In this document: positions 43,544-46,481 of the stretch, piece after piece
Layout of the letters: every line of letters starts with the position of its first letter
Numbering within the stretch: the first letter of the stretch is position 1
Assembly (NCBI GenBank): GCA_024653205.1
Contig: JANLFO010000003.1
Location: forward strand, 19,901 to 83,900
Direction of reading: 5' to 3'
DNA length: 64,000 nt
Source: Clostridia bacterium
Lineage (GTDB): Bacteria > Bacillota > DSM-521 > Neomoorellales > SLTJ01
The notes under the pieces: generated by a model
Told to the model about the DNA's origin: nothing
Seen by the model: only the letters and a program-made list of their open reading frames with translations
Databases searched by the model: none
Made by a program: the position numbers and the translations under genes

Positions 43544-43929
43544 AAGGCCTCCTCCCCTCTCTCGGACGAATGGCCGCGAGCCCTCCGGACCCGCCGTTTT
43601 CCCTCTCCCCTATAGTTCTCGCCCGAGAGAATTTTCCCTCCCCAAGCCGGGCTGGGATTCACTGCAATCCGGCATGGTAAGTCCCCGGATACAGGCTCCG
43701 ACGTCATTGTCTACCAGGTCAATTTGGGAAACGTGACGGCCGAGACATGGCTCTCCAGACGGCCGGCGCCAGGCTTCTCTCAGACACGCTGCAGCCAAGC
43801 GCAGTCGAAATGGGTAGGCCCGCGTCCGGTTCAATCCCCTTTTTTCAGCACGATCACATTGACCGCCAACGCCTCTGCACCCCCCCTGAGCACATTAGGG
43901 CAATGGTCTAACGGACTAAAATCGTACGC

Positions 43930-45540
43930 TCCCAATCCTGACGGAAGCAGCTCACAAGAAGGCCGTTTTTACGATAAAGGCTGAGAGACAGCAAGCATCC
44001 ATAATACAGAAGTACGATCCTGGTAGTTGTTTGAATTACTGGGCTTGCTCGTTGCCATGACCATTAGCAAGCATTGAGTCGAGAATCCTGGGCAATACTG
44101 TTTCACATGTTCCGCAGGCCTTAAGTATTCTACCATGGTCAAAGCGATCGATATGCACATCGAATCGGCCCCTTAACGCAGGTACCAAACTTGCGTCAGT
44201 GTCAACCACGATCATCTTCTGATTCTCATTCGTTGCCATAGATCTCGAGATGATCTTGGTTATGTAGGCGTCAGATTCAGAGAATGAGTATCCAACGATT
44301 ATCAGGACAGCTGCTTCTTCAATGCTCTGCCTTGCATAATTCCATATATCTACCAAGCTTGGAAACATTAAGAACTTGAATGATAGAGGAGGAACTAGCA
44401 GCGGCCGACGCAAGCCGCCGCACTTTTTGCAAATGCCGAGTACCGGGTAACTAAGTGTGTCCGCCTCGAATATTTTCTTCACTTCAAGCAAATTAAATTC
44501 GCGTACATCCTGGCAGGAACTACAGTATGACCAGTTTATAGAGCCGTGCATTTTGATCAATTGAACGGCATTCGGATTATCTTCGTTTTTTCCGCTAATC
44601 GTTCCTCTAAGGGTAATTTTCTCAGTTAGCAGTGCTTCATCCATGCAACCGTCATAGTTCGTTGTAATAATCGTTGTGTGATTATGCTTTTGAATGAAAT
44701 TAACAATGGCCTTGTGTGTTTCATTAGGAGGTGCAGCAATCATAGTACTCGTTAGGAGACCAAACAACGTTTGTAGAGTATCCTGGAGAAAACCAATGGA
44801 CGATACGTCTGCCATAATTCGCCTAATGCTTCCGAAGGTTTCACCCTCCCCACCAACTTCTTGACCCATAGAGTACAAGAAATAATCAACTAGGGCAGTA
44901 ATATGTCTGTTCTTAGCGATAAAATCAGAAACATAAGCGGCAGTCAGCAGATCTTCTATATTCTTTATTTGTCGCCTGTCACACCACCTGCGTAGGTTCT
45001 CCAAGTCTTCACGGCCTATTTTTCTCGCTCTATTCCACAGCTCCGGCAGCAACTGCTTGACCGTGGGGATGCCTGAGTAGGCAGAAGCTCCAGCACCTAG
45101 CAAGAAGGTAACCTTAGTGTCATTACTAACCCTTATGCCCCATACTTCTTTATCTATTACAGGTTCCTCTTCTACTGACATTATCGCTTGACTGATTTCC
45201 TTGATTATAGCCGGAGGGAACCTATCTGCGAATACCTCATACTTTCGCCATATCTCTACCCACCTCGGATCCAACGGTTCGTCCTCTGGTTTCCGTTGTA
45301 GAAACTCATGCATAATGCGGATGGCAAATGTAACAGGGGGGTATTGTTCCAATCTTGTCAATACATGTTGTTGTCGTGGAGAAATGTCTGCCATTTCATC
45401 ACCTCCTAGTAGTGATTTTGCGGTTCCACCCTCATGGTTTACCGCTCGTTCGCCTCTAGCTGTTGATTATGGTCACAAACCGTTCCAGTCCCTCGTCGGC
45501 TCAGTGTTCCGATTGCACGGCGAATTCTTTACACCCTGTA
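43930..45540. other. low-GC islet (putative horizontally acquired insertion) carrying only the SIR2-like gene
   Basis: Hand counts of 60-nt lines give 35-52% GC inside, against about 60-73% in the flanks. Codon choice is AT-rich. No integrase, transposase, tRNA or clear direct repeats. Confidence 0.7.
44036..45394 (-). CDS. SIR2-family protein (SIR2_2-like NAD-binding/NADase fold with sirtuin-like Zn ribbon), 452 aa
   Basis: ATG lies 7 nt after AGGAGGTGA. Motifs are FLLGAGASAYSGIP (res 97-110), ITTNYDGCMDEAL (243-255), KMHGSINW (His283), CSSC(291-294)...CKKCGG(322-327)LRRP, and IIVGYSFSESD (365-375). The N-terminal 95 aa are unassigned. Confidence 0.8.
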   Translation of the reverse strand: MADISPRQQHVLTRLEQYPPVTFAIRIMHEFLQRKPEDEPLDPRWVEIWRKYEVFADRFPPAIIKEISQAIMSVEEEPVIDKEVWGIRVSNDTKVTFLLGAGASAYSGIPTVKQLLPELWNRARKIGREDLENLRRWCDRRQIKNIEDLLTAAYVSDFIAKNRHITALVDYFLYSMGQEVGGEGETFGSIRRIMADVSSIGFLQDTLQTLFGLLTSTMIAAPPNETHKAIVNFIQKHNHTTIITTNYDGCMDEALLTEKITLRGTISGKNEDNPNAVQLIKMHGSINWSYCSSCQDVREFNLLEVKKIFEADTLSYPVLGICKKCGGLRRPLLVPPLSFKFLMFPSLVDIWNYARQSIEEAAVLIIVGYSFSESDAYITKIISRSMATNENQKMIVVDTDASLVPALRGRFDVHIDRFDHGRILKACGTCETVLPRILDSMLANGHGNEQAQ

Positions 45541-45698
45541 CCCCTTTGGACCTACAGTCCACGCCGGGCAACCAAGCGTCGCGCCGCCTTCGGCCATCGA
45601 CCAGCCTCAGCCGCCGGTATCTTCGACACGTCGCCTCCTAGATATCATTCGAGGTCGACGACAGGATTCCTCCTACTATCTGGCAACTCATGGAGGAA

Positions 45699-46481
45699 TT
45701 ACCGGCGCCCGGTGCCGCATAAGGGGCAGTCGGGGTTGCGCTCTATCTTCACTTCCCGGAAGGACATGCAGAGGGCGTCGAAAAGAAGGAGCCTGCCGGC
45801 AAGGGGGCTGCCCGCCCCCAGGATGAGCTTTAGCGCCTCCGCCGCCTGAATGACGCCGATGACGCCGGGTGCCACGCCCATTACCCCGGCCTCGCGGGCG
45901 CCGGCCACCGCGCCGGCCGGTGGCGGAACCGGGAAGAGGCACCGGTAGCAGGGGCTCTGCCCGGGGAGGATGGTGGTCACCATGCCCTCCCAGCGCAGGA
46001 CCCCGGCCTCAATCAGCGGCTTTCCGGCCGAATGGCAGGCGTCGTTCACCACGTAGCGGCTGGGAAGGTTGTCCACCGCGTCGATCACCAGATCGTAACT
46101 GGCGACGAGGGAAAGGGCATTGTCCGGAGAAAGGGTGAGCGGGTGAGGCTCAACCCTCACCTCGGGGTTGAGGGCTTCCACGGCCTCCTTCGCCGAGAGG
46201 GCCTTGGGCCGGCCGATCCGGCCGGTGGCGTGCAGAACCTGGCGCTGCAGGTTGGAAAGCTCTACCCGGTCGGCGTCCACCAGCCCCAGGGTGCCCACGC
46301 CGGCGGCCGCCAGGTAGAGCGCCGCCGGGGAGCCCAGGCCTCCGGCGCCTACGATCAATACCCTGGCCCGGCGCAGCTTTTCCTGGCCCGCCTCCCCTAC
46401 CTCGGGCAGGACAAGCTGGCGCGAGTAGCGCGCCTGCTGCTCAGGAGTCAGTCCGGATGCTTTCACCCTTTCTCCCCTCAT
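45699..46481 (-). CDS. moeB: ThiF/MoeB family adenylyltransferase (molybdopterin-synthase or sulfur-carrier adenylyltransferase)
   Basis: YSRQLVLPEVGEAGQEKL...VLIVGAGGLGSPAALYLAAAGVG, plus CYRC...CPLC zinc ligands. Confidence 0.88.
   Translation of the reverse strand: MRGERVKASGLTPEQQARYSRQLVLPEVGEAGQEKLRRARVLIVGAGGLGSPAALYLAAAGVGTLGLVDADRVELSNLQRQVLHATGRIGRPKALSAKEAVEALNPEVRVEPHPLTLSPDNALSLVASYDLVIDAVDNLPSRYVVNDACHSAGKPLIEAGVLRWEGMVTTILPGQSPCYRCLFPVPPPAGAVAGAREAGVMGVAPGVIGVIQAAEALKLILGAGSPLAGRLLLFDALCMSFREVKIERNPDCPLCGTGRR

Follow-up and report, generated by a model that had tools for sequence, protein, structure and literature searches.

Within the 64-kb stretch of DNA analyzed here (64,000 nucleotides; hereafter the window), a gene on the minus strand, at 44036..45394, encodes a SIR2-fold protein of 452 amino acids (aa), as judged from the open reading frame (ORF), Pfam, alignment and a structural model. 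The ORF opens with ATG, and a Shine-Dalgarno sequence read directly from the DNA (AGGAGGTGA, 45399..45407, minus strand) precedes it, the end of its GGAGG lying 7 nt from the start codon; the earlier note's 452-aa ORF with a strong ribosome-binding site (RBS) is thereby borne out. The public JGI gene call, at 425 aa, starts 27 residues further in, which we judge too late because the alignment of relatives begins at residue 1. The gene follows a ThiF-family gene (PF00899, 293 bits) directly downstream and occupies a low-GC islet alone (43850..45550, no strand, gradual borders). It has 44% GC and a GC3 of 0.45, against 0.82-0.84 in three measured neighbor genes, and besides one 500-bp bin its region is the sole stretch below 58% GC in the 64 kb. 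With nothing else in the islet, the description of a single gene of foreign composition stands.

Pfam searches of the kind proposed in the earlier note returned both SIR2_2 (41.5 bits, cut-off 24.5) and SIR2 (37.3 bits, cut-off 24) above their curated cut-offs, and the protein, which carries GxGxS, NxD and HG, belongs to the SIR2 superfamily. Each motif reported on first reading was found again at the same residues and nucleotides, all on the minus strand. The NAD-binding loop GAGAS (residues 100-104, 45083..45097; motif reading and alignment) is followed by GIPTV in place of the sirtuin GIPxFR, TTNYD (residues 244-248, 44651..44665) contains the invariant N246 and D248, and a catalytic-type His283, likewise invariant, sits in KMHGSINW (44546..44548). 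Eight residues past this histidine begins a Cys4 zinc ribbon (C291-x2-C294...C322-x2-C325-GGLRRP, 44402..44524; alignment and model), whose CSSC-x27-CKKCGGLRRP spans residues 291-331; the distance is presumably that of Sir2Tm. With all four cysteines invariant and the ribbon at the canonical position, the likeness first drawn to the zinc module of canonical sirtuins is confirmed. Further on, the strand-loop GYSFSESD (residues 368-375, 44270..44293; motif reading and alignment), in an IIVGYSFSESD stretch at residues 364-374, is the SIR2_2-type equivalent of the sirtuin GTS motif. Across 78 full-length relatives, G100, G102, S104, N246, D248, H283, G284, C291, C294, C322 and C325 are invariant, and this constancy of the catalytic and cysteine residues places the motifs beyond chance. 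An intact NAD pocket is supported on the evidence of the sequence.

The AF2 model (pLDDT 86.7, pTM 0.84) predicts six long Rossmann strands, a bridge of just two residues (79-80) and a three-strand zinc module. Compared by Foldseek, as the earlier note had suggested, it matches many sirtuin-fold structures with probability 1.0, the SIR2 proteins of SIR2-HerA systems among the best. Taken with the alignment, the predicted fold is a mosaic: the six-strand core and Cys4 ribbon are sirtuin-like, the motifs are sirim-like, and the FGE and GIPxFR loops are lost (in an alignment to sirtuins, FGE falls on FKF and GIPTFRG on GIPTVKQ, which has no Arg). An enlarged helical small subdomain is modeled at residues 112-236 (44687..45061, minus strand), where the identity profile gives a family mean of 65-68%, a loop at 179-196 excepted. 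The N-terminus is modeled as a family-specific four-helix module (residues 1-92, 45119..45394, minus strand), whose mean pairwise identity of 28% is the lowest in the protein, against 65-76% in the core. It has no Pfam match and a best Foldseek E-value of 1.7, and it is a candidate regulatory or sensor module.

Judging from alignment, the 452-aa protein is a member of a rare family of ~460 aa conserved over its full length. A survey of 185,579 species genomes returned only 11 matches to the family and 6 to a sister group, spread over many phyla of archaea and bacteria at 47-67% identity. The GC of the gene lies below that of its flanks in 18 of 18 family loci, and no synteny was seen among the loci compared; the earlier note had held that a vertically inherited, syntenic housekeeping sirtuin of native GC would speak against a defense role, and the patchy, non-syntenic, low-GC distribution is of another kind. 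Two Chloroflexota genomes have corresponding flanks (62-73% identical), and the slot between these is taken by a family member in one and by a sister-group gene of 35% identity in the other. The viral contigs of IMG/VR yielded no family member, and a search of BFVD returned generic viral sirtuins only. One genome encodes a canonical 233-aa sirtuin 3 kb from the family gene, which is thus not a replacement for it. The family itself sits, by profile comparison, inside a large uncharacterized clade of zinc-ribbon SIR2_2-like proteins of 330-390 aa (1866 representatives at E<=1e-10). The proposal of an undescribed stand-alone variant holds in part: in the PADLOC comparison, no described defense family was matched above weak scores (the best model, Aga_SIR2, gave a partial match of 53.9 bits), but the protein is no one-off, having a family and a large clade around it.

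As first reported, no TIR, HerA, pAgo, STAND or retron gene lies nearby, none being found within +/-10 kb in the Pfam annotation of the source contig. A PADLOC scan of pooled ORFs, covering most of the window and the neighbors of seven related loci, matched 88 families; the 25 that its output lists include no such partner, and matches there are not assigned to individual proteins. Several of these and similar matches were discounted: the mad3 matches as generic (two, checked directly, were taken as ABC transporter ATPases), LeoA as generic and probably the Der GTPase, and HEAT-ARM as generic in appearance; the E1-E2 match is the ThiF gene, as was confirmed, and a 'pAgo' match at one family locus (L016) is a Schlafen/AlbA_2-HTH protein. 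An all-against-all comparison of neighbors and of ORFs of at least 25 aa revealed no conserved partner across 16 non-redundant loci. Defense-like or conflict-like neighbors occur in about 5 of the 16, a raw count from a sample that is small and partly selected on contig size; about 10 of them, the window included, are set in ordinary housekeeping surroundings without a defense gene close by. The co-occurrence with defense genes that the earlier note thought worth checking is only moderate. Conflict-type neighbors in individual loci include HmaC (1071 bits), type II restriction-modification with IS elements, a toxin-antitoxin cluster with a kinase, and SLFN_AlbA_2 proteins; in one locus acetyl-CoA synthetase is encoded 2 kb off.

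The earlier note had set residues 1-95 apart as a region matching nothing recognizable, and the separateness of this least conserved part of the protein is underlined by two relatives (P0076 and P0080) in which a ubiquitin-like (Ubl) domain stands in for this module. An E1-Ubl-E2-JAB operon lies alongside, and the fused domain shares 64% identity with the operon's free Ubl. The Ubl-SIR2 genes form part of a three-gene cassette beside that operon and adjoin a STAND-like gene. P0076 and P0080 resemble Bil-type operons (E1, E2, Ubl, JAB) in carrying the operon's Ubl copy and adjoining it, whereas the window gene has neither such neighbors nor a Ubl domain. The exchange of the N-terminus into a Ubl/STAND operon argues that the core is used as the effector of a conflict system.

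Among described systems, the SIR2 proteins of SIR2-HerA (Nezha; PDB 8w9l, 8yhx, 8sub and 8j4u) give the best profile and Foldseek matches. With a profile built on the wider clade they reach 74, 73 and 44 bits, compared with 41 for DSR2, 39 for KomC, 32 for Sir2-Af1/Af2 and 28 for ThsA; these profile scores place the clade nearest to the SIR2-HerA proteins. Shared with these proteins are the GAGxS, TTNYD and HGSxNW motifs, the lack of an FGE loop and a helical small subdomain that follows strand 1 as an insertion; in SIR2-HerA this subdomain autoinhibits the NADase. Unlike them, the 452-aa protein has an extra N-terminal four-helix module, is only 14-18% identical and lacks a HerA gene both within the window and at all 16 family loci; unlike PsSIR2, with eight strands and no zinc finger, it has a Cys4 ribbon and six strands. 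With DSR1/DSR2 and ThsA it shares a SIR2 effector with N/D/H catalytic residues and the concept of an effector and a regulatory module in one protein. DSR1/DSR2, however, are 1000-1260 aa long with a C-terminal sensor of ~700-1000 aa, and the present protein, as was noted at the outset, is far smaller at 452 aa in total, with no large C-terminal sensor (Dsr1 models score 12.8 and 14.3 bits, cut-off 1400). It differs from Thoeris ThsA in having no SLOG (or Macro/TM) domain and no ThsB TIR gene (13.1 bits to the model), and from SPARSA, where a short pAgo accompanies a SIR2-APAZ protein, in that no pAgo is found in the window or family loci and the Aga_SIR2 match is partial. Bonhomme et al. (2024) describe the cysteine tetrad as 'systematically absent' from sirims, which have at least seven central-sheet strands, and classical sirtuins as having a Cys4 zinc module and exactly six central strands. 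Here the tetrad is present and invariant. The family does have TTNYD, HGSxNW and GYSxxD in common with SIR2_2-type proteins, but the earlier label of a defense-type SIR2_2 domain is too simple because the Cys4 ribbon and six-stranded sheet are retained; the protein is better described, from its motifs, as a SIR2_2-like catalytic core that appears to retain an ancestral zinc ribbon.

We propose, with moderate confidence, that the product of this horizontally mobile gene is a SIR2 effector that consumes NAD+, needs no partner and belongs to the biological-conflict repertoire, of the defense or abortive-infection type. We infer the defense function, the abortive infection and the NADase activity from the catalytic set that is invariant in 78 relatives, the patchy distribution of a mobile gene and the Ubl/STAND module swap; the housekeeping context of about 10 of 16 loci and the weak, partial PADLOC matches speak against it. 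By analogy with the SIR2 of SIR2-HerA and with ThsA, the resting enzyme would be inactive, probably through the enlarged helical small subdomain, the four-helix module or both. Infection or another stress would act as a trigger and lift the inhibition, perhaps by oligomerization, whereupon N246, D248 and H283 would split NAD+ into ADP-ribose and nicotinamide or pass ADP-ribose on to a target; either reaction would bring an infected cell's growth to a halt. The ribbon would most likely serve as a structural element or interface rather than bind acyl-lysine, because FGE and GIPxFR, which are needed for deacylation, are gone.

The alternative that survives best, although we consider it unlikely, is a divergent genuine sirtuin, either a deacylase or a substrate-specific protein ADP-ribosyltransferase, regulatory and not immune, in which the ribbon and helical subdomain would make up a cleft for the substrate, and the gene, spread by transfer, would be an accessory regulator of metabolism. 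A substrate-specific sirtuin would be expected to have a zinc ribbon, a sheet of six strands and a small subdomain as very strongly conserved as this one, which holds its 65-68% across domains of life. Like classical sirtuins (Sir2-Af1/Af2, Sir2Tm and CobB), the protein has a six-stranded Rossmann fold with a three-strand zinc module, GAGxS..GIP, and an invariant Cys4 ribbon 8 residues past the His, after which comes CGG-LRRP-LLV, similar to the sirtuin CGGxLRPxVV (CGG..RP..V); Foldseek E-values reach ~2e-9, and the highest target-normalized TM-scores (0.71-0.74) are to Sir2-Af1. CobB-type models lead the NCBIfam matches, an acetyl-CoA synthetase is encoded 2 kb from one family gene, and most loci are housekeeping contexts. 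Yet those NCBIfam scores fall far under the cut-offs (56 vs 243; 51 vs 320), and the protein departs from classical sirtuins in FGE (FKF), GIPxFR (GIPTV), QNxD (TNYD) and GTS (GYS), in being ~200 residues longer and in being encoded by a mobile rather than a housekeeping gene. FGE and the cofactor-loop F-R are lost, and according to the literature the FGE loop and zinc finger are required for deacetylation. The wider-clade profile is nearer defense SIR2 than sirtuins, a canonical 233-aa sirtuin coexists with the family gene in one genome, and patchy spread, AT-rich composition, missing synteny and the exchange of modules in the Ubl/STAND operon likewise speak against this reading.

It is quite improbable that the effector depends on a partner encoded elsewhere, whether a ubiquitin-like conjugation system, for which the adjacent native E1-like gene of the ThiF/MoeB type might be co-opted, or an unlinked sensor; the gene would then be no true single-gene system. 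The two family members in a cassette beside the E1-Ubl-E2-JAB operon lend this some color, as does the window gene's place directly downstream of ThiF, and a second locus has a ThiF gene ~8 kb off. However, the window ThiF is native in composition (GC3 0.84), 260 aa long, a MoeB/ThiF-like length, and is flanked by no Ubl, E2 or JAB gene; the window protein carries a helical N-terminal module and not a Ubl, and no partner, small ORFs included, is conserved across the 16 loci.

That the gene is foreign to its host genome and was horizontally acquired is supported by its composition. The islet has no tRNA, Rfam match, integrase or transposase and no meaningful flanking direct or inverted repeats, promoter and terminator scans there stayed at chance level, and blastx of both intergenic flanks against all collected neighbor ORFs found no gene remnants. 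An empty-site scan of metagenome contigs carrying the neighboring ThiF protein gave a best match of 61% identity, with neither SpoIVA nor the membrane gene in common on any matching contig, and no close relative emerged from which the insertion borders could be drawn. A recently transferred passenger or decaying gene, non-functional in this host, would suit the extreme codon mismatch (GC3 0.45 vs 0.83), the lack of a recognizable promoter above chance and an insertion for which no mobile-element gene accounts, but is very improbable given an intact full-length ORF with all of the family's invariant residues and a strong, ideally spaced RBS.

If the gene is indeed a defense effector, it would be among the smallest self-contained SIR2 systems, present in archaea and bacteria, and a simple model for how a NAD-consuming enzyme is silenced and then triggered without a partner protein. 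Two recent papers, Bonhomme et al. (2024) among them, describe immune-type SIR2 proteins as being without the zinc-binding module; the 452-aa family and its clade of 1866 representatives contradict this, whatever their function. More tentatively, the family and the 330-390-aa clade could be a living intermediate between sirtuins and sirims, a reading that we hold less likely than not, in which the Cys4 ribbon would predate the split and have been lost in defense SIR2s, and the 452-aa form would be a single-protein immune sensor-effector. What this form responds to would then be set by an exchangeable N-terminus, either the four-helix bundle or a Ubl, and the reading would oppose the FAM118 paper, which suggests that the zinc module arose later, within the deacylase line. 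The zinc-ribbon clade also bears on whether the ancestral sirtuin activity was NAD hydrolysis or protein deacylation. Lastly, the Ubl-fused variant connects a SIR2 effector with a bacterial ubiquitin-like conjugation operon, a link for which our literature search returned no precedent. The E1 and JAB of the adjacent operon match Bil and CBASS models weakly (27-54 bits), and the Ubl-SIR2 arrangement is kept between two contigs whose SIR2 proteins are ~67% identical.

The SIR2 gene is a real open reading frame on the minus strand (44036-45394) that codes for 452 amino acids from an ATG start codon, 7 nt 5' of which ends the GGAGG of its ribosome-binding site (AGGAGGTGA, 45399-45407, minus strand). 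The encoded product, hereafter the window protein, bears GAGAS at residues 100-104, TTNYD at residues 244-248, KMHGS with His283, a zinc ribbon of the form C291-x2-C294 ... C322-x2-C325-GGLRRP, and IIVGYSFSESD at residues 364-374. An earlier note had described this gene accurately: its reading frame, ribosome-binding site and low-GC islet were all found, and every motif lies at the residues and nucleotides that it gave. The public JGI gene call (P0001, 425 aa) begins 27 codons late, at Met28, and omits window positions 45314-45394; because the alignment with relatives starts at residue 1, and because a strong ribosome-binding site lies 5' of the upstream ATG, P0001 is N-terminally truncated.

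None of the curated families in NCBIfam or PADLOC takes in the window protein. Pfam returned SIR2_2 (41.5 bits) and SIR2 (37.3 bits), both above cut-off and over overlapping stretches. In NCBIfam, CobB-type deacylases came closest (50-56 bits; cut-offs, 221-320), in PADLOC the top match was a partial one to the pAgo-associated SIR2 model (53.9 bits), and the PADLOC and NCBIfam models for Dsr1 and ThsA scored below 15 bits. The window protein belongs to no SIR2 system described so far, as it lacks a defining feature of each. An AlphaFold2 model built on the alignment of the family (full-length relatives of ~460 aa) reached a pLDDT of 86.7 and a pTM of 0.84, and comprises four N-terminal helices (residues 6-76), six Rossmann strands, a large helical insertion (residues 112-236) and a three-strand module bearing both CxxC pairs. 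Foldseek against the PDB placed SIR2-HerA SIR2 subunits and classical sirtuins in a tie at E ~2e-9 (TM 0.50 by query for SIR2-HerA SIR2; 0.71-0.74 by target for Sir2-Af1), and PDB sequence searches with either the window protein or the family profile gave the same tie. With HMMER, the zinc-ribbon region aligns with Sir2-Af2 residue by residue (CGGLRRPLLV versus CGSLLRPGVV after the second cysteine pair), which rules out convergence and identifies the ribbon as homologous. Elsewhere in that alignment, the sirtuin FGE loop is FKF and GIPTFRG is GIPTVKQ. The window protein is a mosaic: it shares the zinc tetrad and, in the model, the six strands with classical sirtuins, whereas it resembles SIR2_2 proteins in TTNYD, HGSxNW, GYSxxD and the helix that replaces the cofactor loop. 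In the literature, the zinc module (and, in one paper, the FGE loop) is a hallmark of deacylating sirtuins that is absent from immune SIR2 proteins, and one paper assigns exactly six strands to sirtuins and seven or more to sirims, the immune SIR2_2 proteins.

Autoinhibition by the helical small subdomain has been documented for the SIR2 of SIR2-HerA and for ThsA, and in the window protein this subdomain is enlarged and highly conserved. We infer, with confidence that is evenly balanced, an NAD+-consuming SIR2 effector that is normally silent and activated by a trigger. The helical small subdomain would autoinhibit the enzyme, as in SIR2-HerA SIR2 and ThsA, until a trigger caused it to consume NAD+ through hydrolysis or ADP-ribosyl transfer. 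Since the other deacylase elements are gone, the zinc ribbon probably has a structural or interface role. The main rival holds that the protein is a true substrate-specific sirtuin that acts in regulation, either as a deacylase or as a protein ADP-ribosyltransferase. In its favour are the retained ribbon, the count of six strands and a small subdomain that is strongly conserved, but we regard this reading as unlikely. Neither "sirtuin" nor "sirim," as defined in the literature, covers the window protein, which is best called a predicted NAD-dependent SIR2 effector.

The clearest evidence bearing on function comes from the N-terminus. Residues 1-92 are the least conserved part of the family (28% mean pairwise identity versus 65-76% for the core, helical insertion and ribbon) and, folded alone, give a confident four-helix bundle with neither a structural match (best E 1.7) nor a Pfam match. 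A profile search with this module found no relatives outside the family and did not return the family members themselves. The sister group, whose members are 30-40% identical to the family, has other N-termini, and no such extension is present in the 330-390-aa out-groups. P0076 and P0080, which nest within the family (core 65-67% identical to typical members), carry in place of the four-helix module a ~78-aa domain that is 64% identical (BLASTP E 1e-32) to a free YukD-like ubiquitin-like protein (Ubl) coded a few genes away. In both contigs (L177:5688-15471; L179:2266-14484), the Ubl-SIR2 gene closes a cassette of three genes, following a gene of 451-464 aa with no assigned function and one of 955-966 aa with weak nSTAND3 and HEAT signals. 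The cassette adjoins an operon of E1 (ThiF), Ubl, E2 (UQ_con) and JAB-SH3 that matches the Bil and CBASS models weakly; in L179 an NB-ARC/nSTAND1 gene lies between the two. Between these loci the cassette is 62-67% identical, compared with 92-98% for E1, Ubl and E2. This swap beside an E1-Ubl-E2-JAB operon indicates that conflict-type systems use the conserved SIR2 core as an effector, with the N-terminal module as an exchangeable, context-setting part.

A search among 5.8 billion proteins returned 244 relatives. The best 120 of these carry only generic names in their source annotations, measure ~440-490 aa bar some fragments, and share 47-67% identity over 90-100% of the query; they include archaea (Methanophagales, Theionarchaea, Helarchaeota, Methanobacterium paludis) and bacteria (WOR-3, Planctomycetota and others). 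The family is rare: when 1.84 billion representatives were searched exhaustively with HMMER, only 96 reached E<=1e-30, and many of those are fragments. A pattern-limited scan of 185,579 species-representative genomes yielded 11 family and six sister-group members (ribbon in five of six checked), scattered over WOR-3, Iainarchaeota, Chloroflexota, Planctomycetota, Actinomycetota, Lentisphaerota, Vulcanimicrobiota, Caldisericia and Bathyarchaeota; no family member was found in IMG/VR viral contigs. In a Dehalococcoidales MAG, a canonical 233-aa sirtuin (PF02146; L009:12379-13080) lies 3 kb from a family member, and this coexistence rules out the family as a CobB replacement.

The gene is of foreign origin and solitary in most genomes, and at each of 18 loci its GC is below that of the flanking DNA (difference 0.003 to 0.24). 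Two Chloroflexota genomes hold a family member and a 35%-identical sister-group gene, respectively, in the same slot between flanks that are 62-73% identical, which is the pattern expected for a variable hotspot. The shared flanks (L018:9787-12517 versus L029:5301-14451) include TMEM260-like glycosyltransferases; one slot holds the family member and a Schlafen/AlbA_2-REase-like gene, the other the sister-group SIR2, a DUF3800 gene and several unrelated ORFs. Some loci have defence-like or conflict-like neighbours: a convergent gene for the HmaC AAA+ ATPase of the Hma defence system (PADLOC 1071 bits) adjoins the SIR2 gene in an Actinomycetota MAG (L022:3974-9608), a type II restriction-modification pair and several IS elements lie near one family locus, a kinase with ParE/Phd and HigB/HigA-like modules lies near another, and Schlafen/AlbA_2 proteins adjoin the gene in two more. 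The defence role proposed in the earlier note was a reasonable reading, but about 10 of the 16 non-redundant loci, the window included, have an ordinary housekeeping context, and the association, based on raw neighbour counts, is moderate: suggestive, not strong. Across the 16 loci there is no conserved neighbouring gene or adjacent small ORF, and reliance of the window protein on an unlinked partner seems improbable.

The window is a piece of a 186-kb metagenome contig from a high-GC spore-forming bacterium. The SIR2 gene has 44% GC and a GC3 of 0.45 (versus 0.82-0.84 in the three neighbouring genes measured). Save for one 500-bp bin, nowhere else in the 64 kb does GC fall below 58%, and the gene is the sole content of the low-GC core (~43.85-45.55 kb). 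The islet showed no tRNA, Rfam match, integrase or transposase, and no convincing repeats at its flanks. To one side of it lie SpoIIP, YIEGIA, Der, PlsY, GpsA, SpoIVA and ThiF; to the other, a membrane protein, an ABC-2 transporter, TrpA/TrpB and PFK. Directly upstream is the ThiF/MoeB-type E1-like gene (45699-46481, minus strand; 260 aa, 293 bits to PF00899, native GC). Given the Ubl operon of the relatives this adjacency is striking, yet it is probably coincidental, as the vicinity of the gene holds no Ubl, E2 or JAB and the window protein has no Ubl module. In another family locus (L008), a ThiF gene lies ~8 kb from the family member.

In the 78 relatives aligned, the NAD-pocket residues G100, G102, S104, N246, D248, H283 and G284 are invariant, as are all four ribbon cysteines. 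The pocket of the window protein is intact, and that its gene is a non-functional passenger is the least probable reading of all. C138, C250, P335 and P336 are also invariant; C138 (~44981-44983) and C250 (~44645-44647), the latter straight after TTNYDG, lie outside the ribbon and may contribute to a second metal site, a disulfide or catalysis.

Beyond the family, the nearest out-groups in the exhaustive search (~100 bits, 327-392 aa) nearly all have HGSxNWxxCxxC, and most have the second CxxC and GYSFPDAD. They are named only "SIR2 family protein" in the databases and matched no PADLOC model strongly. This zinc-ribbon SIR2_2-like clade (P0220-P0267; loci L033, L035-L037, L041, L045, L066) includes apparently solitary Bacteroidota members, and similar proteins occur in loci from Bacteroidota, Alphaproteobacteria and Clostridia. 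A profile of the wider clade scored SIR2-HerA SIR2 proteins at 74, 73 and 44 bits, DSR2 at 41, KomC at 39, Sir2-Af1/Af2 at 32 and ThsA at 28; from these profile scores, its N-terminal half appears closer to defence-type SIR2, with the ribbon as the link to sirtuins. The exhaustive search gave 1866 representatives at E<=1e-10 to the family profile, so that SIR2_2-like proteins with a zinc ribbon are common, which contradicts recent papers denying immune-type SIR2 proteins a cysteine tetrad; both this evolutionary point and the Ubl-SIR2 operon make the window protein more interesting. In Clostridia MAGs, a distant protein of this type (407-448 aa; no strong PADLOC match among those tested) ends a conserved four-gene operon (L042:7077-10625; same order in L043, L046, L065, L067, L072, L074 and L091), after genes of ~190 aa (weak SocA/Panacea antitoxin-domain match), ~147 aa and ~446 aa (no Pfam match).
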